Assembly: GCF_018350175.1 (NCBI RefSeq)
Contig: NC_058368.1
Location: forward strand, 620,001 to 684,000
From: Felis catus
Lineage: Eukaryota
Direction of reading: 5' to 3'
Length of the DNA: 64,000 nucleotides
Position 1 is the stretch's first letter, and each line of letters opens with the position of its first letter. The position numbers were made by a program, and so were the translations under genes. Shown piece after piece: positions 9,000-63,255 of the stretch. Below the pieces are notes generated by a model. It did no database searches. It saw only the letters and a program-made list of their open reading frames with translations, and was not told where the DNA came from.

Positions 9000-9355
9000 A
9001 TCAGCATATAGATGTTATTTAAGGCCTTGACACTGGGCGAGATCACTAAGTGACTGAGGGTACAAAAAAGAGAAAATGTAGAAAGTAGTGTCCTGGAGAC
9101 CAAGTGAAAAAAGTGTTTCAAGGAAGAAAGAGGCGTGTTAAATGCTGTTAACAGACGAAGGGTGAGAACTGAGAACTGATCTTGGAATTGAGCAACGTAA
9201 AGGTCATGATAACTTCAATGAGAGCAGCTGGAAGGGAGAGGGACGCTGCCAAAGCTTAAATGGAGGAAATACATGAAAGAATGAGAAATTAAGGACTGCT
9301 AACTCTTCCCAGGAGTTCTGTTATAAAGGGAAGGAAATAAATGGAACGGTGGCTG
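9000..9355 (-). mobile_element. Ancient LINE2 fragment interrupted by the provirus (continues at about 16436-16560)
   Basis: Purine-rich, degenerate L2-like sequence (gtgtcctggagaccaagtgaaaaaagtgtttcaagg...) that reads through across the TSD. Family recognised by eye. Confidence 0.55.
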
Positions 9356-9919
9356 TGAAAGGGCGGGCCCACGCCAGCCAACTCCATCTTGTTCTGTGTC
9401 CTTCACCTAGACCACGCCTCCTCCCTTTGAGTGACCTCCCGCTCACCCATTCAAGCTTCCTGATCAAAACACGCCACTTCCCCAGCCAATCGGCTGCCCC
9501 TAGACCCCTATAAAACCTTTGTGCTTTTGAAACTCGCGCTCTTGGGGCGCCTGGGTGGCGCAGTCGGTTAAGCGTCCGACTTCAGCCAGGTCACGATCTC
9601 GCGGTCCGGGAATTCGAGCCCCGTGTCGGGCTCTGGGCTGATGGCTCAGAGCCTGGAGCCTGTTTCTGATTCTGTGTCTCCCTCTCTCTCTGCCCCTCCC
9701 CCATTCATGCTCTGTCTCTCTCTGTCCAAAAAATAAATAAACGTTGAAAAAAAAAAATTTAAAAAAAAAAAGAAACTCGCGCTCTTTCCCTGGTATCTCA
9801 CCGCTGCGTCAGTGCAGGTAGGGGATTGAGCTCGAGCTAGCTCGAATAAAGGCTCTTTGCTTTTGCATCGGACTCGGCTCCCTAGTGGTCTTTGGGGATC
9901 ACGAATTCTGGGCATAACA
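9356..9919 (+). repeat. 5' LTR (321 bp plus 243 bp of SINE insertion and TSD)
   Basis: TGAAAGGGCG...GGCATAACA. CCAAT 9486, TATAAAA 9509-9515, AATAAA 9845-9850. Matches the 3' LTR once the SINE is removed. Confidence 0.96.
9544..9771 (+). mobile_element. Young felid SINE (SINEC_Fc type) inserted in the 5' LTR
   Basis: GGGGCGCCTGGGTGGCGCAGTCGG head, (CT)n and A-tail. 15-bp TSD GAAACTCGCGCTCTT at 9529-9543 and 9772-9786. Confidence 0.96.
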
Positions 9920-9921
9920 TT

Positions 9922-9940
9922 TGGGGGCTCGGCCCGGGAT
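9922..9940 (+). promoter_or_regulatory. Primer-binding site, tRNA-Pro-like (variant)
   Basis: TGGGGGCTCGGCCCGGGAT, 2 nt after the LTR; the canonical PBS-Pro is TGGGGGCTCGTCCGGGAT. Confidence 0.85.
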
Positions 9941-9984
9941 CCCCAAGACCCCCAAGGGACCCCCGACCCGGAGAGCCTGACTGG

Positions 9985-10120
9985 CCACGGTTAGTGTCTG
10001 TTTGTTCTGTCTTTTCTGTGTGAGCTCATTTCTGGAATTCTGGTAGTGCCCGACGCGGTCTAAGTGGACGCACTGGAGGACCACGGGCCGGGAGTTTCGG
10101 AAGACGTTCCGATTCTCCCT
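9985..10120 (+). promoter_or_regulatory. Retroviral splice donor and dimerisation/packaging (psi) signal
   Basis: Donor CG|GTTAGT at 9990, palindrome TGAGCTCA at 10021-10028, and GACG-tetraloop hairpins AGTG-GACG-CACT (10063-10074) and GGGAG.TT.TCGGAA-GACG-TTCCGA.TT.CTCCC (10090-10119). Confidence 0.75.
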
Positions 10121-10123
10121 TCT

Positions 10124-10312
10124 GGAGGGACGTGGAATCCCCTCATCTGTTTCGGAGGGACGTGGAATCCCCTCATCTGTTTTGGAGGGACGTGGAATCC
10201 CCTCAAAGGTCTGAGACGAGGCGGGTCGCTCCCGCTGGTCGGCGTGAGGCCGTCGTCTTTGGAGGGACGTGGAATCCCCTCATCGGTTTTGGAGGGACAT
10301 GGAATCCCCTCA
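10124..10312 (+). repeat. Leader tandem repeat, five copies of GGAGGGACGTGGAATCCCCTCA (30-bp period, arranged 3+2)
   Basis: Copies start at 10124, 10154, 10184, 10261 and 10291. Confidence 0.95.
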
Positions 10313-10430
10313 AAGGTCTAAGCTAGCTCTCAGTTTTGCTTCCATGGAGTTGGAAGACTTTCTAGGGGCCCTCTGTTTGTCTGTTTTTGTGTTTCTCTGT
10401 TTTGCTCTGTGGACTTACTGGACGGACGTT

Positions 10431-12023
10431 ATGGGACAGACTCAGACTACTCCTCTAAGTATTATGATTGATCACTTTAAGGATGTGAGGGGAAGAGCTA
10501 ACAACTTCAGTGTGGAAGTCCAAAAGGGTCGGTTGCAGTTTTTTTGTTCTAGCGAGTGGCCAACTTTCAATGTCGGATGGCCACCAGAGGGGACCTTCGA
10601 CCTCCCTACCATCCACCGAGTCAGGAGTATCATCTCTCAGCCTAAGACAGGCCATCTTGATCAGCTCCCTTACATTATCACTTGGCAGGACCTTGTACAA
10701 GACCCACCCTCTTGGCTTAAGCCCTTCCTAACCCTGCTCCCTCCGGAGCCAAAACCCATTCTTGCTTTGCAGGAGACAGAGAAGAGGAAATGTCTTATCC
10801 AGCCTTCAGCACCCCTCTACCCTGTCCTACAGGGGGGTACTGAAGAAGAATTAATTTTTCCTCCCCCGTATAACCCCTCTAGGATGCCGGAAGAACACCA
10901 TCCTCCCCCTCCGGGGGAGGCAGACGCTGTTCCGAGAGCAGGAGGCGGAAACGCTCCAAGGGGAAGCCCGCCCTTTACCAGACAAAGGGCTCAGAGGGAG
11001 CAATCCGCCTCCGCCGCCGACTCCACTCTTCTGCCCCTGCGAGCCACCGGACCCCCAGACGCGGAGGGGAATCAGCCCCATCACTATTGGCCTTTCGCCA
11101 CTAGTGACCTCTACAATTGGAAAGCTCAGAATCCTAAGTTTTCCGAGAAACCGGCAGGGCTTATTGATTTATTAGACTCTGTTCTTTTTACCCATCAGCC
11201 CACGTGGGATGATTGCCAGCAGCTTTTGCAGGTCCTGTTCACGACTGAAGAAAGAGAAAGAATCCTCAATGGGGCCCGAAAACTAGTTCCGGGCGCAGAC
11301 GGGAATCCCACCACCAACCAAGCTCAGATAGATGCCTCCTTCCCCTTAACTCGGCCCCAGTGGGATTTCAACACGGCAGAAGGTAAGGAGAGGCTCCGGG
11401 TCTACCGCCAGACTCTAATGGGGGGTCTCCGAATGGCTGCTAGAAAGCCAACCAATTTGGCCAAGGCAGGAAATGTACAACAGGGAAAAGATGAATCTCC
11501 GGCTGCCTTTTTAGAACGGATCATGGAGGCATTCCGTACCTATACCCCCATGGATCCAGAGGCTCCGGAAAGCAAGGCAGCTGTTATCATGGCCTTTGTA
11601 AACCAATCGGCCGTAGACATTAGGAGAAAATTACAGAAAATAGATAGACTAGGAGAAAAAAGTCTGCAGGACTTACTGGTGGTAGCCGAAAAGGTATATA
11701 ATAACCGGGAGCCTCCTGAGGACAAGCAGGCTCGCACCATGGCGGCTGCCAGCAGTAAGCAGACTCGAGACCTGGCCAGAATACTACTAGCCACCACTGC
11801 TGACTTCCCCGAGGAACGAGACCGCCGTCTCCGGCAGCTGGCAGACGATGCAAGAAAAGGTAAAGGAACCACCAAGGGGGGGAAGCAGAGGCTGCAGAAG
11901 GATCAGTGCACATACTGCAAGGAGATAGGGCATTGGGCCCGAGATTGTCCGAAAAGGGCCGTCGGGAAGGGAAGCAAGACTGGTCGAGTAAAAGTCCTAG
12001 AGCTGGATGAACTAAGTGATTAG
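10431..12023 (+). CDS. gag: Gag polyprotein, intact ORF of 530 aa; frame open upstream as a glyco-Gag-like extension from ATG 10299/10344
   Basis: MGQTQTTPL myristoylation start, PSAP/LYPVL/PPPY late motifs, MHR VQQGKDESPAAFLERIMEAF, CCHC knuckle CTYCKEIGHWARDC, amber stop at 12021-12023. Confidence 0.95.
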   Translation: MGQTQTTPLSIMIDHFKDVRGRANNFSVEVQKGRLQFFCSSEWPTFNVGWPPEGTFDLPTIHRVRSIISQPKTGHLDQLPYIITWQDLVQDPPSWLKPFLTLLPPEPKPILALQETEKRKCLIQPSAPLYPVLQGGTEEELIFPPPYNPSRMPEEHHPPPPGEADAVPRAGGGNAPRGSPPFTRQRAQREQSASAADSTLLPLRATGPPDAEGNQPHHYWPFATSDLYNWKAQNPKFSEKPAGLIDLLDSVLFTHQPTWDDCQQLLQVLFTTEERERILNGARKLVPGADGNPTTNQAQIDASFPLTRPQWDFNTAEGKERLRVYRQTLMGGLRMAARKPTNLAKAGNVQQGKDESPAAFLERIMEAFRTYTPMDPEAPESKAAVIMAFVNQSAVDIRRKLQKIDRLGEKSLQDLLVVAEKVYNNREPPEDKQARTMAAASSKQTRDLARILLATTADFPEERDRRLRQLADDARKGKGTTKGGKQRLQKDQCTYCKEIGHWARDCPKRAVGKGSKTGRVKVLELDELSD

Positions 12024-12080
12024 GGGAGTCAGGGTTCGGACCCTCTCCCCGAACCCAGGGTAACTCTTAAAGTGGAGGGG
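12021..12080 (+). promoter_or_regulatory. gag-pol UAG read-through pseudoknot
   Basis: TAG plus 8-nt spacer GGGAGTCA, stem 1 GGGTTCGG/CCGAACCC, and loop CCCTCT pairing with downstream GGAGGG. Same architecture as in MLV. Confidence 0.8.
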
Positions 12081-15000
12081 ACCCCTATTGACTTCCTTGT
12101 CGACACCGGAGCACAACATTCGGTCCTCCGCACCCCACAAGGAAAACTAGCTAGCAAGAAGTCCTGGGTACAAGGGGCAACTGGTATGAGCCAGTATTCA
12201 TGGACTACCCGAAGAACAGTAGATTTGGGAAGGGGCCGGGTATCCCACTCCTTTATGGTAATACCAGAATGCCCCTACCCGCTGTTAGGACGGGACTTAC
12301 TGACCAAGACTGGAGCTCAGATAACTTTCAGACAAGGGGGGCCTCAGGTCACCGATGGCAAGGGCCACCCCATCCAGGTCCTGACCATGAAACTGGAGGA
12401 TGGGGGCGCCTGGGTGGCGCAGTCGGTTAAGCGTCCGACTTCAGCCAGGTCACGATCTCGCGGTCCGGGAGTTCGAGCCCCGCGTCGGGCTCTGGGCTGA
12501 TGGCTCAGAGCCTGGAGCCTGTTTCCGATTCTGTGTCTCCCTCTCTCTCTGCCCCTCCCCCATTCATGCTCTGTCTCTCTCTGTCCCAGAAATAAATAAA
12601 AACGTTGAAAAAAAAAATTAAAAAAAAAAAAAAAAAAGAAACTGGAGGATGAATACCTCCTCCACCAGGAGGCGCTCCCGAGAGAGGCTAATATAGACAG
12701 ATGGCTACAAGAATTCCCCTCGGTTTGGGCAGAGACGGGGGGATGGGACTAGCCGCTCATAGGACCCCAGTCCTGGTAGAGCTCAAGCCAGGAGAGAGTC
12801 CGGTAAGGATCAAACAATACCCCATGTCTCAGGAGGCCTAGAAGGGGATCCAGCCACACATCCGGAGACTACGAAGCCTAGGGGTACTAGTTCCTTGCCA
12901 GTCTGCCTGGAACACCCCCCTACTGCCGGTCAAAAAGCCTCACACAAATGACTACCGACCGGTACAAGACCTCCGGGAAGTAAATAAGAGGGTCGTGGAC
13001 GTACACCCAACTGTTCCCAACCCATATACTCTCTTGAGCTCCTTAGCGCCCTCCAGGGTCTGGTATACTGTACTAGATTTAAAGGACGCCTTCTTCAGTC
13101 TGCCGCTGGCACCCCAGAGCCAACCCTTGTTCGCCTTCGAGTGGCATGATCCGGAGGAGGGCTACAGTGGGCAACTCACCTGGACACGGCTACCTCAGGG
13201 ATTCAAAAATTCACCCACCATCTTCGACGAGGCACTACACGAGGACCTGGGTGAGTACAGAAGGGAGCACCCTGGCCTCACCCTTCTACAGTATGTAGAT
13301 GACATCCTGATTGCGGCTGACACTGCCAAAGACTGTGAGCGAGGGACCCAGGACCTGCTGGCTACCCTGGGGGCCTTAGGGTACCGGGCATCCGCGAAGA
13401 AGGCTCAGCTATGCAGGGAGAGGGTAAGTTACCTGGGATATATCCTGGAGGGCGGACAGCGGCGGTTATCAGAAGCCAGAAAAGAAACTGTCCTAAAGAT
13501 CCCTACTCCCACCTCCCGAAGAGAAGTGAGGGAATTCCTAGGATCAGGCGGCTACTGCCGCCTCTGGGTTCCAGATTTTGCTGAGATCGCCAGGCCCCTA
13601 TATGAAGCTACCAAAGAGGGGAAAACGTTTAAATGGGCTGAAAAAGAAGAAACTGCCTTTAATCAGTTAAAAAGGGCCCTCCTAAGTGCCCCAGCCCTGG
13701 GCCTACCGGACATTACGAAACCCTTCCACCTCTTCGTAGACGAACATAAGGGAATAGCAAAAGGGGTTCTAACTCAAGCCTTAGGCCCCTGGAACTGTCC
13801 AGTGGCTTACCTAAGAAACTAGACCCAGTGGCTGCCGGCTGGCCGCCATGCCTAAGAATTATTGCGGCGACAGCACTCCTAGTCAAGGATGCAGACAAAC
13901 TGACCCTAGGACAGGAGATCTGGATCACGACCCCACACGCCATTGAAGGGGTCCTGAAACAGCCTCCGGATAGATGGATGAGCAATACACGTATGACTCG
14001 TTACCAGAGCCTCCTACTCAACCCTCCACGAGTGCGGTTCCACCCCAGTGCAGCCCTCAATCCTGCAACCCTGCTGCCCGACCCTGACCTAGGTGCTCCA
14101 TTACATGACTGTGCGGGAATCCTGGAACAAGTACATGGATTCCGGACGGACCTGACCGACCGGCCCCTCCCCGATGCTCAGGCTACTTGGTTCACTGATG
14201 GCAGCAGCTTTGTGCGAGACGGACACAGGTATGCAGGTGCAGCGGTGGTCACCGAAACCGACACCGTATGGGCGGAGGCTCTACCCTCTGGAACGTCAGC
14301 CCAGCGAGCAGAGCTCATAGCCCTCACCAAGGCGCTGATGCTGGGAGCTGGAAAACGGCTTAACATCTACACAGACAGCCGTTATGCATTTGCCACAGCT
14401 CATATTCATGGGGCAATTTATCAGGAGAGGGGGTTACTGATGGCAGAAGGATGGACTATAAAAAATAAGCAGGAGATACTTAACCTGCTTACGGCCTTAT
14501 GGCTTCCTGCCAAGCTAGCCATTATCCACTGCCAAGGGCACCAAAAAGCTGATAACCCAGTAGCTAGAGGTAATCTAAAGGCTGACCAGGCAGCCAAGGC
14601 AGTAGCCCTTACTCCAGTCCCCACCATGACCATACAACTACCGGACCCGGGAGACCCAGTTTTACCAGACCAGCCCAAGTACTCCCAGGAGGAGTTACAG
14701 TGGATCAAGAAACTCCCCATGGCCCAGGAGATAAAGGGATGGTGGTATACACCTAACAAGGAGCTCGTGTTGCCAGACCAGCTCGGAGTCTCAATATTAG
14801 AGCACATGCATCGGTCTACTCACATGGGGGCCCGAAAATTAAAAGACTTAATCCGACATGCCGGAATCAAGATTCACCAACAGGACACCAAAATAGAGCA
14901 AGTTGTATCTGCCTGCAAGACCTGCCAACTCACCAACGCGAGGGCCACATCAAATAAAAAAGGAACCAGGCTCAGAGGCACCAGACCGGGAGCCCAATGG

Positions 15001-15862
15001 GAAGTTGACTTCACTGAAGTCAAACCAGGAAAGTATGGTTTTAAATATCTTTTAGTATTTACAGACACCTTCTCTGGCTGGGTGGAGGCATACCCAACCA
15101 AGCATGAAATGGCTCAGACGGTGGCTAAGAAGCTACTAGAAGACATCTTACCCAGGTATGGTTTTCCTGCCATGGTAGGATCGGACAATGGACCAGCTTT
15201 TATCTCGCAGGTAACACAGGCAGTAGCCAAGGTGGTGGGGGCAAACTGGAAATTACATTGTGCTTATAAGGCCCCAGAGCTCAGGACAGGTAGAAAGAAT
15301 GAATAGAATCCTAAAAGAGACCCTTACCAAATTAACCATGGAGACTGGCGGGGACTGGGTGACTCTCCTACCATACGCCCTTTACCGGGTTAGAAACACT
15401 CCTTACACTCTGGGTTTTACTCCCTACGAGATCATGTTTGGCAGGCCACCCCCTGTTATTCCCAGCCTTCGAGCTGAACTTATTGCTGAGTTTGAAGATC
15501 AAGAACTTTTTCTTTCCTTGAGCGGGCTCCAGAGGGCGCACAAGGACATTTGGCCGCGCCTCCGTGCCATCTACGAGGCTGGCCCGATCCCGACACCTCA
15601 TCAGTACAGGCTGGGAGACTGGGTCTATGTCAAGAGGCACCACCGAGAGACTCTCGAGCCGCGCTGGAAGGGACCCTACATCGTGGTGTTGAAAACCCCC
15701 ACCGCTCTCAAGGTAGACGGCATCGCGACCTGGGTCCATCACACCCACGCCCAGCCAGCGGACCCCTCCTCGATCCGGAAGGATGTTGTCACGCGATGGG
15801 CCATCAGTCGGGACCAACACAACCCGCTCAAGCTCAAGCTACAGCGCATTCGACCTACCTAA
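12024..15862 (+). pseudogene. pol: pro-pol pseudogene (protease intact; RT, RNase H and IN disrupted)
   Basis: Motifs: PR LVDTGA and [16 protein letters not shown] and YVDD; RNase H WFTDGSS; IN HHCC, WEVDFTE and SDNGPAF. Lesions: SINE at 12403, -1 at about 12740, TAG at 12839-12841, 4-nt deletion at about 13812, +1 at about 15268. Confidence 0.95.
12403..12637 (+). mobile_element. Young felid SINE inserted at the start of RT
   Basis: Full SINE with A-tail. 14-bp TSD GAAACTGGAGGATG at 12389-12402 and 12638-12651. Confidence 0.96.
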
Positions 15863-16113
15863 TATTGGTAACTCTGTTAACTCTGCTTGTCATTGCTCAT
15901 GCTTCCGGGAGTCCCCACGCCCCCCAGAACATCGCCTGGCAGATCATAGACACCAGCTCGGGGACAATACTTAATCAGACCTCCCAGAGCCACCCCAGGG
16001 ACACATGCTTCCCAGAACTTAGCGTAAAACCTCCAAACTCTGTTCCCCTTGTCACCATAAATGCAGCCGGCCCCATGATTGGGTCCGTAAGCTACATGAC
16101 AAGGGGGGAATGA
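15796..16113 (+). pseudogene. env: env remnant: signal peptide plus about 40 aa of SU, with the rest of SU and all of TM deleted
   Basis: MGHQSG...LILVTLLTLLVIAHA-SGSPHAPQNIAWQIID...HPRDTCFPEL resembles a gammaretroviral SU N-terminus. The frame runs into the PPT and stops at the first LTR codon. Candidate env acceptor ttttatctcgcag|g at 15210. Confidence 0.8.
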
Positions 16114-16431
16114 AAGGGCGGGCCTACGCCAGCCGACTCCATCTTGTTCTGTGTCCTTAACCTAGACCACGCCTCCTCCCTTTGAGTGACCTCCCGCTCA
16201 CCCATTCAAGCTTCCTGATCAAAACACGCCACTTCCCCAGCCAATCGGCTGCCCCTAGACCCCTATAAAACCTTTGTGCTTTTGAAACTCGCGCTCTTTC
16301 CCTGGTATCTCACCACTGCCTCGGTGCAGGTAGGGGATTGAGCTCGAGCTAGCTTGAATAAAGGCTCTTTGCTTTTGCATCGGACTCGGCTCCCTAGTGG
16401 TCTTTGGGGATCACGAATTCTGGGCATAACA
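16111..16431 (+). repeat. 3' LTR (uninterrupted, 321 bp)
   Basis: Follows the PPT directly. CCAAT 16241, TATAAAA 16264-16270, AATAAA 16357-16362. Seven substitutions versus the 5' LTR. Confidence 0.96.
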
Positions 16432-32684: not shown

Positions 32685-32816
32685 ATGACTGTGGGGATCT
32701 TTGCAAATTGTACCTTCTGTTTGAAAGTCAAGCACTTACCTCGTCAACAGAAGAAAAAGCTACAAAATGACATTAAGGAGAATGGTGGAAAATTTTCCTT
32801 TTTATTAAATCCTCAG
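32685..32816 (+). CDS. PARP4: PARP4 (vault PARP) exon 2 with start codon; BRCT domain
   Basis: MTVGIFANCTFCLKVKHLPRQQKKKLQNDIKENGGKFSFLLNPQ. Acceptor ttcctacag|G-ATG, donor gtattt. Confidence 0.95.
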
Positions 32817-35793: not shown

Positions 35794-35995
35794 TGCACAC
35801 ATATAATCTTAGATAATGCTGATGTTCTGAGCCAGTATCAACTGAACTCTATCCAAAAGAACCATATCCATATAACAAACCCAGATTTTATATGGGAATC
35901 TATCAAAGAAAGGAGACTCTTGGACGTAACGAATTATGATCCTAATAAGTCACCAGACATCACACCACCTCCTTGTCAAAAGGCAAGCAGTTCTG
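35794..35995 (+). CDS. PARP4: PARP4 exon 3 (BRCT)
   Basis: CTHIILDNADVLSQYQLNSIQKNHIHITNPDFIWESIKERRLLDV...KASSS. AG/GT, 202 nt. Confidence 0.94.
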
Positions 35996-38559: not shown

Positions 38560-38626
38560 AAATGACAACAGATGATCTGTCCCAGGACAACTCCACTGAG
38601 AAGGAAAACGTTGTGGAACTCACAGA
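38560..38626 (+). CDS. PARP4: PARP4 exon 4
   Basis: (E)MTTDDLSQDNSTEKENVVELT(E). AG/GT, 67 nt, phases consistent with neighbours. Confidence 0.85.
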
Positions 38627-39516: not shown

Positions 39517-39592
39517 GTCTTATACAGAGAATGCTGAAATTCCTCATTTTCCACAAGATTTCGAAGTTGCAAAATATAACACCTTGGAAAAA
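39517..39592 (+). CDS. PARP4: PARP4 exon 5
   Basis: SYTENAEIPHFPQDFEVAKYNTLEK. AG/GT, 76 nt. Confidence 0.92.
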
Positions 39593-40330: not shown

Positions 40331-40447
40331 GTTGGGGCGGAGGGTGGTAAGGCAGTGGCGGTGGTGGAACTGCAGTGCTCCCGGGAGGAGCCCGGGGACG
40401 CCGCCTTCCTGATATCCGCACACTTCCTCTCGGCCACCGGCGTCAAG
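40331..40447 (+). CDS. PARP4: PARP4 exon 6
   Basis: VGAEGGKAVAVVELQCSREEPGDAAFLISAHFLSATGVK. AG/GT, 117 nt. Confidence 0.88.
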
Positions 40448-43076: not shown

Positions 43077-43226
43077 ACTAGAAGACACTTCTCTGTAAAG
43101 AAAACCTCTGCAGATGCAAGTGAGCACTATGAAAATTACATTGAAGAACTGAAGAAACAAGGATTTCTGCTAAGGGAATATTTTACACCCGAAGCAACCC
43201 AGTTGGCATCTGAAAAACTGCAGGCG
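43077..43226 (+). CDS. PARP4: PARP4 exon 7
   Basis: TRRHFSVKKTSADASEHYENYIEELKKQGFLLREYFTPEATQLASEKLQA. AG/GT, 150 nt. Confidence 0.92.
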
Positions 43227-43757: not shown

Positions 43758-43895
43758 TTGCTTTTGGAGGAGGTAATGAATTCAAGCACTCTGAGCAAAG
43801 AGGTGAGCGATTTGGTGGAGATGGTCTGGGCGGAAGCTCTCGGCCACCTGGAGCACACACTTCTCAAGCCTGCGAACAGGATTAGTCTCAATGAC
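43758..43895 (+). CDS. PARP4: PARP4 exon 8
   Basis: LLLEEVMNSSTLSKEVSDLVEMVWAEALGHLEHTLLKPANRISLND. AG/GT, 138 nt. Confidence 0.93.
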
Positions 43896-44950: not shown

Positions 44951-45124
44951 GTGAGCAAGGCAGAGGGAGTTCTCCTTCTAGTAAAGGCAGCCCTGAAAAA
45001 TGGAGAAACAGAAGAACAATTGCAAAATATGATGACCGAGTTCTACAGATTAATACCTCACAGAGGCACAGCAACTGAAGAAGTGAACCTGAGACTATTA
45101 GCTAAGAAAGAGGACCTCTGCCAG
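44951..45124 (+). CDS. PARP4: PARP4 exon 9
   Basis: VSKAEGVLLLVKAALKNGETEEQLQNMMTEFYRLIPH...KKEDLCQ. AG/GT, 174 nt. Confidence 0.93.
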
Positions 45125-48590: not shown

Positions 48591-48751
48591 CTAATAAGAG
48601 ACATGGTTAATGTCTGTGAAACTAATCTGTCCAGACCCAACCCGCCTTCTCTTGCCAAATACCGAGCTTTGAGATGCAAAATTGAGCATGTTGAACAGAA
48701 CACTGAAGAATTTTTCAGAGTTAGAAAAGAGGTTTTACAGAATAATCACAG
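48591..48751 (+). CDS. PARP4: PARP4 exon 10
   Basis: LIRDMVNVCETNLSRPNPPSLAKYRALRCKIEHVEQNTEEFFRVRKEVLQNNH. AG/GT, 161 nt. Confidence 0.93.
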
Positions 48752-52575: not shown

Positions 52576-52713
52576 TACAGGTCCAGTAGACATCTTGAAG
52601 ATATTTAGAGTTGGCAGAGTGAATGAAGCCACAGAGTTTTTGAGCCGGCTTGGCAATGTGAAGTCCTTACTGCATGGATCTCCCGTACAAAGCTTTGTAG
52701 GGATCCTGTCCCG
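52576..52713 (+). CDS. PARP4: PARP4 exon 11 (catalytic domain, HGS motif)
   Basis: TGPVDILKIFRVGRVNEATEFLSRLGNVKSLLHGSPVQSFVGILS(R). AG/GT, 138 nt. Confidence 0.92.
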
Positions 52714-54945: not shown

Positions 54946-55041
54946 TGGGTTGCTTTTACCCAAAGTAGTTGAAGATCGTGGCACAAAGAGAACAGACACT
55001 GGAAATCTTGGGAGTGGGATATATTTCAGCGATTCACTCAG
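54946..55041 (+). CDS. PARP4: PARP4 exon 12 (catalytic domain, GIYF motif)
   Basis: GLLLPKVVEDRGTKRTDTGNLGSGIYFSDSL. AG/GT, 96 nt. Confidence 0.93.
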
Positions 55042-55986: not shown

Positions 55987-56025
<39 letters not shown>

Positions 56026-57393
56026 CAACAACTCTAGGTGTTGGTAAGTCTCTAGAACAGTCTGAACTCTCAGACACTGTCAATAAACTGATAAGCCCTC
56101 TTGAGGAAATGTTGGCATCATCTGCTGTAGTTGAAGAGCATAATTAATGGTGTGACTTAGGAATCCTATAGATTGGACTAGGAACCAGGAAGCAGCAGTT
56201 CTCAATCCTGGCTACACATTCAAATCACCTGGAGATTTTATTTTTATCTTTTTATGTTTTTTACTTGAAGGACTTTCTTTTAAAGTTTTCATTCAAATTC
56301 CAGCCAGTTAACACAGCGTGATGTTTGTTTCAGGTGTACAGGTTAGTGATCCAACACGTCTGTGCAACACCCAGTTCTCATCACAAGTGCCCTCCTTAAT
56401 CCCCATCACCTATTTCACCCATCGCCCCACCCACCTCCCCACCTGGAGGAGCTTTTAAACACCACTGGTGCTGATTTCACCCCAGATCAGTCAAATCAGG
56501 ATGTCTAGGGGTGAGGTTTTTAAGCTCCCTGGATGATTCAGACTGAGTTGAGAATCACTTCCCTAGTGAGTCTACATAGACCAGGAGACATGTACACAGA
56601 TGGCTAAGAAAACTGTAAGATCACTGGAAATGATGCAGATGTCCAATAAGAGTGGGATGGATCCAAAAATTTTGGTGTCGGCCTACATGGAGTCTTATAT
56701 GGCAGTTGAGACACGTGTACTACAGCTACACGTGCCAAATGGAGGAGTCTTAGGAAGGTAACGTGGAGCAAATAATTGCTCTATGATTCTATATGTATAG
56801 AGTTTGAAAACAAGCAAAACTAAGCATACTGTTGAGGGACACATATCTATGCATCAATACTGTAAAAGAAAGAAAAAATAATATACACATAAACACAAGA
56901 TAGCAATTAGATTACCCTCTGGGTGGCAGGGAAGGTAATGCCACAGGGCAACGTAGAAATATTGATGATGTTCTTTTCCGTTTTTTTGTTGTTGTTGTTG
57001 TTGTTGTTGTTTTCAGTGTTTATTTATTGTTGAGAGACAGCGGGCACACGTGCATACATTTGCAGAACAGGGGTAGAGAGAGAGAGAGACAGTGGATCCA
57101 AAGCTAGCTCATGCTGACAGCAGAGAGACCGATGCAGGGCTTGAACTCACTAACCGTGAGATCATGACCTGAGCCAAGGTCGGGTGCTTAACCGACTGAG
57201 GCACCCAGGCACTCCTGTTCTTTTCTGTTTCTTAAACTTGGCAGGAGCTATGTGGTTGTCTGTCTTATCATTGTTCTTGAAACTTAACACTTATGGTATA
57301 AATGCTCTTTCCTCTGTACAAATCTTTCAAAGTAAAACTTTTTTAGATGTTAAGATTTTTTTTTTTTTAACAAATTGGGATTCCTTTGAATTT

Positions 57394-57605
57394 TTTTTTT
57401 TTCAACGTTTATTTATTTTTGGGACAGAGAGAGACAGAGCATGAACGGGGGAGGGGCAGAGAGAGAGGGAGACACAGAATCAGAAACAGGCTCCAGGCTC
57501 TGAGCCATCAGCCCAGAGCCCGACGCGGGGCTCGAACTCCCAGACCGCGAGATCGTGACCTGGCTGAAGTCGGACGCTTAACCGACTGCGCCACCCAGGC
57601 GCCCC
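57394..57605 (-). mobile_element. Young felid SINE in PARP4 intron 12
   Basis: TSD GGGATTCCTTTGAATTT at 57377 and 57608, with 2 extra nt at the SINE 5' junction. Confidence 0.92.
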
Positions 57606-58978
57606 AAGGGATTCCTTTGAATTTAACCAAGTTGAAGTCCTTGGTGACTTTGGACAGAGTGGTTTCAATTGAGCCAAACTGCAACAGGCTGAAGGGTGAT
57701 GGACAAGCAAGCAGATAGAGGCAGCCATTGAGAAAGGTGGGGGATGGAGAGGGAGGAAGTGGAGGTAAAGTCAAGGGTCACAGGCTCAGCAGTCACAGGG
57801 AAACAAGTTTTAGGAGAAATGGGGGAAATTGATTATTTTTTTTTAGGGGACAGGTCTTGGGGCACTTGGAAAGCACAGTCGGTAGAGCTCGCGGCTCTTG
57901 ATCTCTGGGTTGAAAGTTCGAGCCCTGCGTTGGGTGTAGAGATTACTTAAAAATAAAGTATTGTTAATATATAAAAAAATTTTTTAAATAAAAGGGAGTA
58001 AGTCTTAGGGAGCTTGGGTGGCTCAGTCAGCTGGGTGTCTGACTCTTGATTTCTGCTTGGGTCATGATCTCGCAGTTGTGGGATTGAGCCCCATGTTGGG
58101 CTCCCCACTGAGCGTGCAGCTTGTGGGGACTCTCTCTCCCTCACCCTCTGCCCCTCCCCACTTGTGCATGTGCGTGCTCTCGATCTCTCTCTCTCAAAAA
58201 AAGAGGGGGAAGTCAAGTCTTAGAGGGGATAGAACAAAGGGTCTTCAGGCAACACTTTTATATTTGGGTCTTGATATTTGGAAAAATAAAGATATGTCCC
58301 AAAAATGTTGCTTCCAAAGGTGTCCTAGCCTATGCTCCTTAATAACAAGAGTTGCTTTTTTTTTTTTAAGTTTATTTATTTAAGAGAGAGAGTGAGCATG
58401 GGAGGGCAGAGAGAAAAGTTGCTTTTTTTAAAGCTGCTGAGTCCTGAAGAAAGTCAAAACAAAATCTCTCATTTAGATGTTGTTTGAAGTTTTGTTTCTC
58501 CATCTGGATTCAGAAGGCTTTGTGAGAATACCAGTGCTGTCTTTCCCTTTGACCAGTTCTTACTTACCTAGTATTTCATGTTCTCTCTGAGCTTCAGTGC
58601 ACAGAAGTAATCTGCTCTTTCTTAACTAATAAGGTGGGGGGTTTTCCTTATCTTTCGTCACTTTGGTGTTTGCTGTACCAAAATGTGTGTGTTTTAGTAG
58701 TTAGTAAAGATTTGAGGCAACAGGGGAATGCATCCATCCCTGGAAGAAAGTACTTTGAACACTACCTGCACAACAGAAAGGCAACATCTGAAACAAGTAA
58801 GTGAATAATAAAGTTCTAAACTGACCCTTCAGAGATATTTTAATAGCCGTAAAATCTGGAACATCCTGCCAGCAAAGTCATTGAGACAGTATTTCACATA
58901 TAGAGATGGATAATGGATACTAAAATATTATTGCCATGTAACCGTAAGTCACAAACACGTACTTCCTTTCCCTCGCAG

Positions 58979-59161
58979 TACGGGTATTAAGTACTCCCAC
59001 CCGGGAGAGACCGATGGCACAGGCTCCTGGCTGTCTGTGATGTAGCCCTTGGAAAGTGTGCGGACTTACACAGAAAAGACTTCTCCTTGTCGGAAGCACC
59101 ACCAGGTTATGACAGTGTCCATGGGGTTCGAGCAACAGCCACTGTCACCACGGACTTCGAG
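58979..59161 (+). CDS. PARP4: PARP4 exon 13, frameshifted as assembled (1-bp deletion at about 59020)
   Basis: The 5' part TGIKYSHPGETDG and the 3' part RLLAVCDVALGKCADLHRKDFSLSEAPPGYDSVHGV...TTDFE lie in different frames. The exon is 183 nt, but its phase 2-to-0 position needs 3n+1 nt. The incoming frame hits TAG at 59043-59045. Confidence 0.9.
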
Positions 59162-59352
59162 GTATTTATTTCAAGAAACAAGCAGAGAGCTCCTGTTTTT
59201 ATTGAATATGCTTAAGTTTAAATAATTATTGCATATTTATGGCTGCCTGAATTCAATATTTTCTAGATTAGCAAACCTGCAAATCTGCTTTTCTGAAAAC
59301 ATTTGCCAATAAAGGATTTGTCCCCATACCTATTAATTTCTGTTGGTTCTAG

Positions 59353-59509
59353 GATGATGAATTTGTTGTGTATAAAACCAATCAGATTAAATTGAAATAT
59401 ATCATTAAATTTTGCCTACCTGGAGATGAAATAAAGGACTTTCATCCTTGTAATACTACTGAATTAGAAGAATCCAGACCTGAGTTTTCAAATTTTTCAA
59501 AGGTTGAAG
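59353..59509 (+). CDS. PARP4: PARP4 exon 14 (catalytic Glu, DDEFVVY)
   Basis: DDEFVVYKTNQIKLKYIIKFCLPGDEIKDFHPCNTTELEESRPEFSNFSKVE. AG/GT, 157 nt. Confidence 0.93.
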
Positions 59510-60962
59510 GTAAGACAATTTTCTTGAATGCTGTTTTATGTGATATTTATAGAACTCAAACATTTTATTCTTAGAGGAATTTATGTTCATGTTCAGTAAC
59601 TGTATCTGGGAACTCATACATTAATATTCTATTTCCTTTTTTACTTTGTAGAAGTAAAAACCAGGATACTTGAGAGAGGTTAGGTGTTCTCAAAATTACA
59701 TCTTACTTTGTTAACATACCGCGTTGAACTCTCACACCTGCAGACGGCCAGGGCCACAAACCCACTGAAGCAATTTAAGATGCCAAGTGCAAGAAGTGTC
59801 AGGGGGGTTGGTGGAGTAGACAAGAGACACAGCTTTAGAACCAGGAAGCCCAGGTTCTAGTGTCGACTTGCTGATTACTAGGCTGTGCAATATGGGGCAA
59901 GCTGCATAAGCTTCTGCAGCCTCAGCTTTTCCGTTTTGAGTATGAGATCAGTACCTGCCTCAGGTGAAGGCACCCCCCCAGGTTTAATGTGCAGCTTAGT
60001 AGAAATACATGAGAGGATGGGAGCTTCTCAGAAAATCAGAAGCCCACACTATTTATAACATTTATTATAGCGTTGTCAAAACACATTAACATTTTCAACT
60101 GTGGTCCAATTATTTTTTATCAGAAATGTATGACTTCACGTATAAGCAAATGACTCCTGTTTTCTGTCCTAGAGCCGTTAAATTAAATATCTGGCAAGAG
60201 AGTATATATTTACATATCTAACTATATGTGTATTCTTGTACCACCTGGTATAGAAGGGGAGCTTTTTTTTTTCATATGCTATATTAGAACTTTGATTTAG
60301 CGGGGCGTCTGGGTGGCTCAGTCGGTTAAGCGTCTGACTTCGGCTCAGGTCGTGATCTCCTAGTCTGTGAGCTCAAGCCCCACATCAGGCTCTGTGCTGA
60401 CAGCTCAGAGCCTGGAGCCTGCTTCAGATTCTGTGTCTCCCTCTCCCTCTGCCCCTCCCCTGCTTTTATTTTATTAAAAATATTGTTTTTTAAACTTTGA
60501 TTCAGTGTTCCTTGGGTTGAATGTCTAAGCAGTCTCATATTGGTCTTACATGCCTCTGTGGCACAATAAATGGTAGTGACCAATCAAAATTGCAGGCCAA
60601 GGAATGCATTATCTAGATTCATGCATAAACTACACTTATTTAAATAGTCTTAAGACTTGTGTGCTTGTGTATATGTTTAAATGTATGTCTTTCAAGTAAT
60701 TGCATGATTCTAAATTTTCAAGATCACTCCTCAGAATCTGTAGATTAAAAAGTTAATGTGTCTATTATAAATGCTGCCCCCATTTTTCTCATATGGGTTC
60801 ACTTACTTTACAGAATTGACTACTGAAAATCATAAAATGCTACTTGTCCATTTTTCCTAAAATATACTGTATGAAGGGGGAAGGGAAAGAAATAAAGATT
60901 AAGATAACAAAGATAGTGCAGGGATGGTCTTAAAAGCTAACATTATAATTTTTAATATGTAG

Positions 60963-61087
60963 ATTATCAGTTACAAGATGCCAAACCTTTCGGCAACATC
61001 AGGTCTGGCCTTCAGGATGTCTCTGGCAATTCAGTTCCTCTTGAGGAGGTTCACATCAAAGGAAGAATAATAGACTTTGTAGCCCAG
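60963..61087 (+). CDS. PARP4: PARP4 exon 15 (start of VIT domain); gene continues beyond the window
   Basis: (D)YQLQDAKPFGNIRSGLQDVSGNSVPLEEVHIKGRIIDFVAQ. AG/GT, 125 nt. Confidence 0.92.
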
Positions 61088-62039: not shown

Positions 62040-63255
62040 GCCCCCACCCCCAGCCAGCACACCACCTCCCCCCAGCCCTCCCACCAGCAGCGGCCAGCAA
62101 GCCCTCCCCACCACTGCCCCCTCCCCCAGCAAGCCTACCCCCTCCCAGCCAGCCCACCTCCTCCCCTCCAGCCCTCCCACCACCTCCCCCCAGCCAGCCC
62201 ACCAGTGCCAGCCAGCAAGCCCTCCCCACCACTGCCCCCACCCCCAGCCCCCCAACCACCTTCCCCCAGCCCTCCCACCACCTCCCCCTAGCCCTCCCAC
62301 CACCTGCCCCCCATCCAGCCCACCACCTCCCCCCCAGCCAGCCCACCACCTCCCCCCAGCCCTCCCACGACCTCCCCCCCAGCCAGCCCACCACCTCCTC
62401 CCAGCCCTCCCACCACCTCCTTCCCAGCCAGCCCACGACCTCCCCCCTCAGCCCTCCCACCACCTCCCTCCCAGCCAGCCCACCACCTCCCCCCAGCCCT
62501 CCCACAACCTCCCCCCCAGCCAGCCCACAACCTCTTCCTCCCAGCCCTCCCACCACCTCCCCCCCAGTCCTCCCACCACCTCCCCCCAGCCAGCCCACCA
62601 GTGCCAGCCAGCAAGCCCTCCCCACCACTGCCCCCACCCCCAGCCCCCCAACCACCTTCCCCCAGCCCTCCCACCACCTCCCCCTAGCCCTCCCACCACC
62701 TGCCCCCCATCCAGCCCACCACCTCCCCCCCAGCCAGCCCACCACCTCCCCCCAGCCCTCCCACGACCTCCCCCCCAGCCAGCCCACCACCTCCTCCCAG
62801 CCCTCCCACCACCTCCCTCCCAGCCAGCCCACGACCTCCCCCCTCAGCCCTCCCACCACCTCCCTCCCAACCAGCCTACCACCTCCCCCCAGCCCTCCCA
62901 CAACCTCCCCCCCAGCCAGCCCACAACCTCCTCCTCCCAGCCCTCCCACCACCTCCCCCCCAGTCCTCCCACCACCTCCCCCCAGGCAGCCCACCACCTC
63001 CCCCCCCAGCCAGCCCACCACCTCCCCCCCAGCCAGCCCACCACCTCCCCCCCAGCCAGCCCACCACCTCCTCCCAGCCCTCCCACCACCTTCCCCCAGC
63101 CAGCCCACCACCTCCCCCCACAGCCCTCCCACCACCTCCCCCCAGCCAGCCCACCAGTGCCAGCCAGCAAGCCCTCCCCACCACTGCCCCCTCCCCCAGC
63201 CAGCCCACCACCTCGCCCCAGCCCTCCTACCAGTGCCAGCCAGCAAGCCCTCCCC
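62040..63255 (+). repeat. C-rich minisatellite (units of about 20-22 bp: CCCAGCCAGCCCACCACCTCCC / CCCAGCCCTCCCACCACCTCCC) with a 396-bp higher-order duplication
   Basis: Seen directly. The marker CCAGTGCCAGCCAGCAAGCCCTCCCC recurs at about 62202, 62598, 63154 and 63231. Confidence 0.93.

Follow-up and report, generated by a model that had tools for sequence, protein, structure and literature searches.

Organization of the PARP4 locus

The window considered here (the whole analysed stretch of 64,000 nucleotides of the Felis catus contig NC_058368.1, positions 620,001 to 684,000) carries, on its forward strand, exons coding for residues 1-640 of PARP4, the vault PARP. A total of 14 coding exons were placed between positions 32685 and 61087 by tblastn combined with a splice-site search in which felid PARP4 proteins served as guides, and the exons are collinear with those guides. 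The first coding exon, which includes the ATG, is intact (32685-32816). It is followed by eight further exons that are likewise intact in the guide alignment (35794-35995, 38560-38626, 39517-39592, 40331-40447, 43077-43226, 43758-43895, 44951-45124, and 48591-48751). The human PARP4 catalytic triad consists of H438, Y477, and E547, as given in the legend to Figure 4 of PMC10711553; by this numbering, the triad His is encoded by the intact exon at 52576-52713 and the triad Tyr by the intact exon at 54946-55041. The latter immediately precedes the exon that is the main subject of this report, coding exon 12 (58979-59161). This exon ends at human residue 544 and so the catalytic Glu (E547 in the numbering of that legend) is found three codons further on, within the next exon (59353-59509), which is itself intact. 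The final PARP4 coding exon identified in the window, at 60963-61087, is intact as well. An AG precedes every exon except the one with the ATG and a GT follows every exon. With coding exon 12 set aside, the remaining 13 coding exons of the window are free of stops and frameshifts.

Several other elements were identified in the window. SINE-like elements at 57113-57605 and 60302-60460 are inverted with respect to one another, with arms of 103-115 nt that are 79-85% complementary, and this pair sits in the introns that flank coding exon 12 together with the exon that follows it. A run of 34 A residues is found at 55991-56024. A C-rich minisatellite with a 23-nt unit and about 44 copies occupies 62118-63156, in the intron downstream of the exon at 60963-61087, and shows a higher-order period of 396 nt (2.6 copies, 93% match); this minisatellite accounts for the GC content of 0.66, the GC skew of -0.48, and the long frames free of stops in both strands that characterize the last 2 kb of the window. 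About 16 kb upstream of PARP4, also on the forward strand, lies the remnant of a gammaretrovirus-like endogenous provirus (9338-16298). Its gag is an open frame of 591 amino acids (10248-12023) with MA, p30, and a zinc knuckle. The pol portion is broken, since the segments for protease, reverse transcriptase, RNase H-integrase, and an MLV-type integrase C-terminus fall in several different frames as far as 15862. No Pfam match to env was obtained within 9338-16298. Two pairs of direct repeats (9338-9543 and 16093-16298, 95% identical; 9544-9741 and 12403-12600, 97% identical) suggest that the provirus is a rearranged copy.

A frame break in the catalytic-domain exon

Coding exon 12 is 183 nt long where the reading frame needs 184. 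It covers human PARP4 residues 484-544, is preceded by a cag acceptor at 58979, and is followed by gtattt on the donor side. The preceding exon ends in ctc ag, followed by gttagt, at 55041, and the AG joined across the junction to the T of coding exon 12 yields a Ser codon ahead of the residues TGIK. Translated from 58980, the exon reads TGIKYSHPGETDGT followed by GSWLSVM and then runs into the premature TAG at 59043-59045, which is codon 506 once the exons are spliced. The frame of 59021 (translated from 58979) instead gives RLLAVCDVALGKC, continuing through GYDSVHG to TTDFE. The text around the switch reads gat ggc ac agg ctc ctg (59013-59029); at the lesion site itself (59019-59023), the letters ac of a Thr codon are directly followed by the Arg codon agg, with one base missing between 59020 and 59021. 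The immediate flanks are c-a-c-a-g-g and form no long homopolymer. The phases of the exon are 2 at its start and 0 at its end, and skipping it leaves the frame unrestored.

The two sides of the break were compared with proteins of solved structure. The piece upstream of the break corresponds to human PARP4 residues 484-497/498 (E = 1e-3), with all three matches being PARP4 chains. The piece from 59021 corresponds to residues 498-544 (E = 6e-22), again with three of three matches among solved structures, and the human PARP4 catalytic domain structures matched were 8SWY and 8SX1. Because the human PARP4 matches on the two sides sit in offset frames, the two halves of the exon are one base apart. 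When the 47-residue piece alone was compared with the Pfam family PF00644 (PARP catalytic domain), it scored 26.3 bits against a cut-off of 26.7. In precomputed annotation, the full-length felid orthologues carry PF00644 along with the BRCT, VIT, and vWA families.

The frame break is thus confirmed, in a cat PARP4 that is otherwise intact. An initial annotation of the window, made from the letters of the sequence, had already proposed this break, and its structural account held throughout. The assignment of the gene is borne out by human PARP4 being the sole structure match on both sides of the break. The exon borders and the argument from phase were found as described (ctc ag before gt at 55041, cag before t at 58979, and 183 rather than 184 nt), as were the loss of the third base of the Thr codon in ggc-ac-agg, seen as the frame switch between 59020 and 59021, and the TAG after GSWLSVM in the translation from 58980. 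The same is true of the location of the site outside any long homopolymer and of the open state and splice sites of the other 13 coding exons. The triad was said to be spread over exons 11, 12, and 14, in a numbering in which the exon with the lesion is exon 13, so that the stop removes the Glu; the placement of H438, Y477, and E547 from the human figure legend agrees with this.

Comparison with other felids and with the cat protein model

The initial annotation had called for a comparison across felids. At the lesion site, the residues TDGTRLLAV are intact in all eight PARP4 models that were compared, which represent six other felid species: Panthera onca (two models), Panthera leo, Panthera tigris, Neofelis (two models, N. 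nebulosa), Prionailurus bengalensis, and Prionailurus iriomotensis. The orthologues of Prionailurus and Panthera share with the window their exon structure and splice phases, and their protein identity to it is 98-99% over the 639 residues that the window encodes. The difference from felid and human orthologues alike is that the window lacks one base in the catalytic exon and that its frame ends at codon 506. Against Prionailurus bengalensis, 495 of 497 and 140 of 142 residues are identical on the two sides of the lesion. The window also shares the cat-specific residues of UniProt A0ABI7ZKE7, the single Felis catus model that was returned; these residues, along with the degree of identity to Prionailurus, identify the window as being from a Felis-type cat.

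The A0ABI7ZKE7 model joins STGIK directly to LLAVCD, leaving out 11 residues exactly at the lesion. The stretch dropped is 58991-59022 on the forward strand, a segment of 32 nt that begins with GT and ends with AG. A length of 32 nt is far too short for a credible working mammalian intron, and the gap looks like an annotator's detour around the frameshift. Since the residues omitted are exactly those at the lesion, the assembly behind A0ABI7ZKE7 also has the 183-nt exon. It should be noted that this assembly and the window may be identical, and the two are hence not necessarily independent.

The A0ABI7ZKE7 model departs from the other felid models elsewhere as well. It skips two of the window's intact exons and runs another into its intron (the exons concerned are 38560-38626, 40331-40447, and 59353-59509), and it uses other splice sites after 59484. 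Beyond the window, it is without about 44 residues and has 11 that differ where the other felids agree (alignment columns 1226-1280); this second departure could be either a second lesion or a modelling artefact. Felid PARP4 shares a 116-member protein cluster at 90% identity with M-phase phosphoprotein 8 proteins. The 15 members listed for this cluster include no NCBI PARP4 protein from Felis catus, and no match to MPHOSPH8 was found in the window.

Real allele or assembly artefact

The reading that we favor, and regard as likely, is that the 1-base deletion is a real, recent germline loss-of-function allele in the catalytic-domain exon of PARP4 in a Felis-type cat. The evidence that bears most directly on whether the missing base is real comes from assemblies of other sequencing runs. 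All 102 of the 31-mers sampled from positions 58700-59700 are present in 14 de novo, genome-size contig sets that carry one organism label. Two of these sets carry a flag as possible sources; the other twelve, which derive from nine samples and six studies, carry none. The sets listed are those with the highest word shares and provide no measure of allele frequency. The 102 words were sampled from a total of 971, their positions are not visible, and the evidence consists of word shares; with 31 words spanning the junction and random sampling assumed, the chance that no sampled word spans it is about 3% by our own arithmetic. The contigs of each set are assembled from the reads of that run, and, were the missing base an error of assembly, the 31 junction-spanning words would be absent from every run unless none of them had been sampled. 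Taken as word shares, these data provide good, if indirect, support for the presence of the deletion in several animals. Fixation or near fixation of the deletion in the domestic cat lineage is a separate matter; it is possible, and we consider it rather unlikely.

The foremost alternative is an assembly or consensus error, in which the exon of the animal is the normal one of 184 nt and polishing of the assembly removed a base. Indels are the usual fault of long-read assemblies, and a lone indel in a gene with 13 other exons free of lesions and with no excess in its rate of change has the look of a consensus error, as does a site at which all eight models of other felids are intact. Set against this are the 12 unflagged and two flagged contig sets that contain every sampled word, with the escape chance given above, the position of the site outside any long homopolymer, and the fact that the Felis catus model A0ABI7ZKE7 works its way around the same site. 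An error of this kind is considered improbable. The initial annotation had put forward a null allele, a recent pseudogene, and an assembly error side by side. That choice can now be narrowed, and the error becomes the least likely of the three because all 102 sampled words are contained in the 12 unflagged contig sets.

Alternatively, the deletion could be real and partly rescued by splicing at a cryptic acceptor, cAG followed by G, at 59020-59022. The sequence permits such an acceptor and the phase fits: the AG of the preceding exon joined to this G would encode Arg, followed by LLAVCD, and the protein would be shortened by about 14 residues. The 20 bases upstream of the AG, however, are purine-rich, a pyrimidine tract is lacking, and the deletion leaves the strong natural acceptor at 58978 unchanged. 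Moreover, the residues lost would lie between the triad Tyr and Glu, as these are placed by the published figure legend, in the NAD+ pocket, and activity would probably still be lost. Rescue by this route is judged to be very unlikely. A programmed +1 ribosomal frameshift or a correction at the RNA level that reads through the break has nothing in its favor beyond the frame break itself, every orthologue examined encodes the exon in one frame, and recoding of this sort can be dismissed as extremely improbable.

Other searches were made with the sequences around the lesion. Six RNA runs from feline or gut samples contain 0.24-0.65 of the 31-mers, a range that says nothing on which allele is transcribed. 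The genomic open reading frame in the frame that follows the lesion (74 amino acids), compared with entries of near length in a protein collection, returned six matches, none of them felid. The open reading frame ahead of the lesion with its aberrant tail (43 amino acids), compared with entries of greater length in the same collection, returned two candidates, neither of which was scored. These two comparisons yielded no open reading frame of cat origin with either form of the exon. A pattern that allows either allele gave no matches in metagenome contigs and none in viral contigs.

Predicted consequences and age of the lesion

Loss of one base in the catalytic-domain exon shifts the frame after residue 498 and leads to the TAG. 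The spliced frame consists of 498 native and 7 aberrant residues, with the stop at codon 506. If the deletion is a real allele, as favored here, the truncated PARP4 would keep the triad His and Tyr and would lose the catalytic Glu, in the numbering of the human figure legend, along with the last strands of the ADP-ribosyltransferase fold. All of the downstream VIT, vWA, and vault-binding C-terminal regions would be lost too, and because the product would be without the catalytic Glu and without these regions, the allele is predicted to be null. A second consequence would concern the transcript. By the established rule, nonsense-mediated decay is expected when a stop precedes a later exon-exon junction by more than about 50 nt. 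Here the distance from the stop to the junction that joins 59161 to 59353 is 116 nt, and more junctions follow. The PARP4 mRNA should be subject to nonsense-mediated decay, a prediction that follows from the location of the stop far upstream of later exon junctions.

To examine how old the lesion might be, amino acid changes were counted in an alignment of six PARP4 proteins, with the gaps of the cat model excluded and the pantherines as reference. Eight positions are unique to the cat and seven to Prionailurus, a test of little power. In this six-protein alignment there is no excess of cat-specific amino acid changes and no sign of relaxed constraint; as a rough inference, the test excludes only a loss that is several million years old. 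The reading of an old, decaying pseudogene finds no support, in that no other stop or shift occurs in 13 exons and the unique changes number eight versus seven. The lesion, if real, is young, since the 14 coding exons of the window show no other defect, there is no excess in rate, and the site is intact in six other felid species. The term 'recent' in the initial annotation is supported by the lack of any further lesion in the 13 exons and by the same near-equal counts of unique changes.

Relation to published data and to other losses of PARP genes

The literature searches yielded no publication that describes a PARP4 lesion in the cat or any other felid. A cat exome paper lists PARP4 in its supplement file 2 at chrA1:640579-751565 of Felis_catus_9.0, with a CDS of 5136 bp (PMC8009874). 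This entry indicates that an annotated full-length PARP4 model exists on Felis_catus_9.0; how that model reads the lesion site is not shown in the file (PMC8009874). In a second source, supplement files 1-10, 12, 13, and 15 contain one PARP4 structural-variant row and no PARP4 frameshifts (PMC7581003).

Loss of PARP family members is known from other mammals. According to Daugherty et al. (2014), the mammals examined keep all PARP genes, PARP4 included, except PARP10 and PARP15, of which PARP10 was lost in carnivores and PARP15 in five lineages; PARP4 is described there as being under positive selection in primates and bats (PMC4038475). If the deletion is real, the cat PARP4 resembles the cases described in that source in that a member of the PARP family is inactivated within one mammalian lineage. 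It differs in having one lesion in a gene that is neither decayed nor deleted.

Implications

A loss-of-function allele of a single gene is an ordinary kind of thing. Parp4 knockout mice, described by Liu et al. (2004) and Raval-Fernandes et al. (2005), are reportedly viable and have normal vaults, and a natural PARP4 null may for that reason be tolerable; the knockout mouse is a null for the same gene as that affected by the cat lesion, but an engineered one. As a practical matter, the lesion is masked in A0ABI7ZKE7 by a gap of 11 residues in the NAD+ pocket, and studies of selection or comparative analyses should not treat this model as intact. Should the missing base be an error instead, the reference assembly would contain another frameshift in need of correction. 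A real and common deletion would make cats a naturally occurring vault-PARP null, useful for studies of the role of PARP4 in vaults, DNA-damage signalling, and conflicts between virus and host. If the deletion is fixed, the vault particles of cats would be entirely without PARP4, an outcome that would be of moderate interest.
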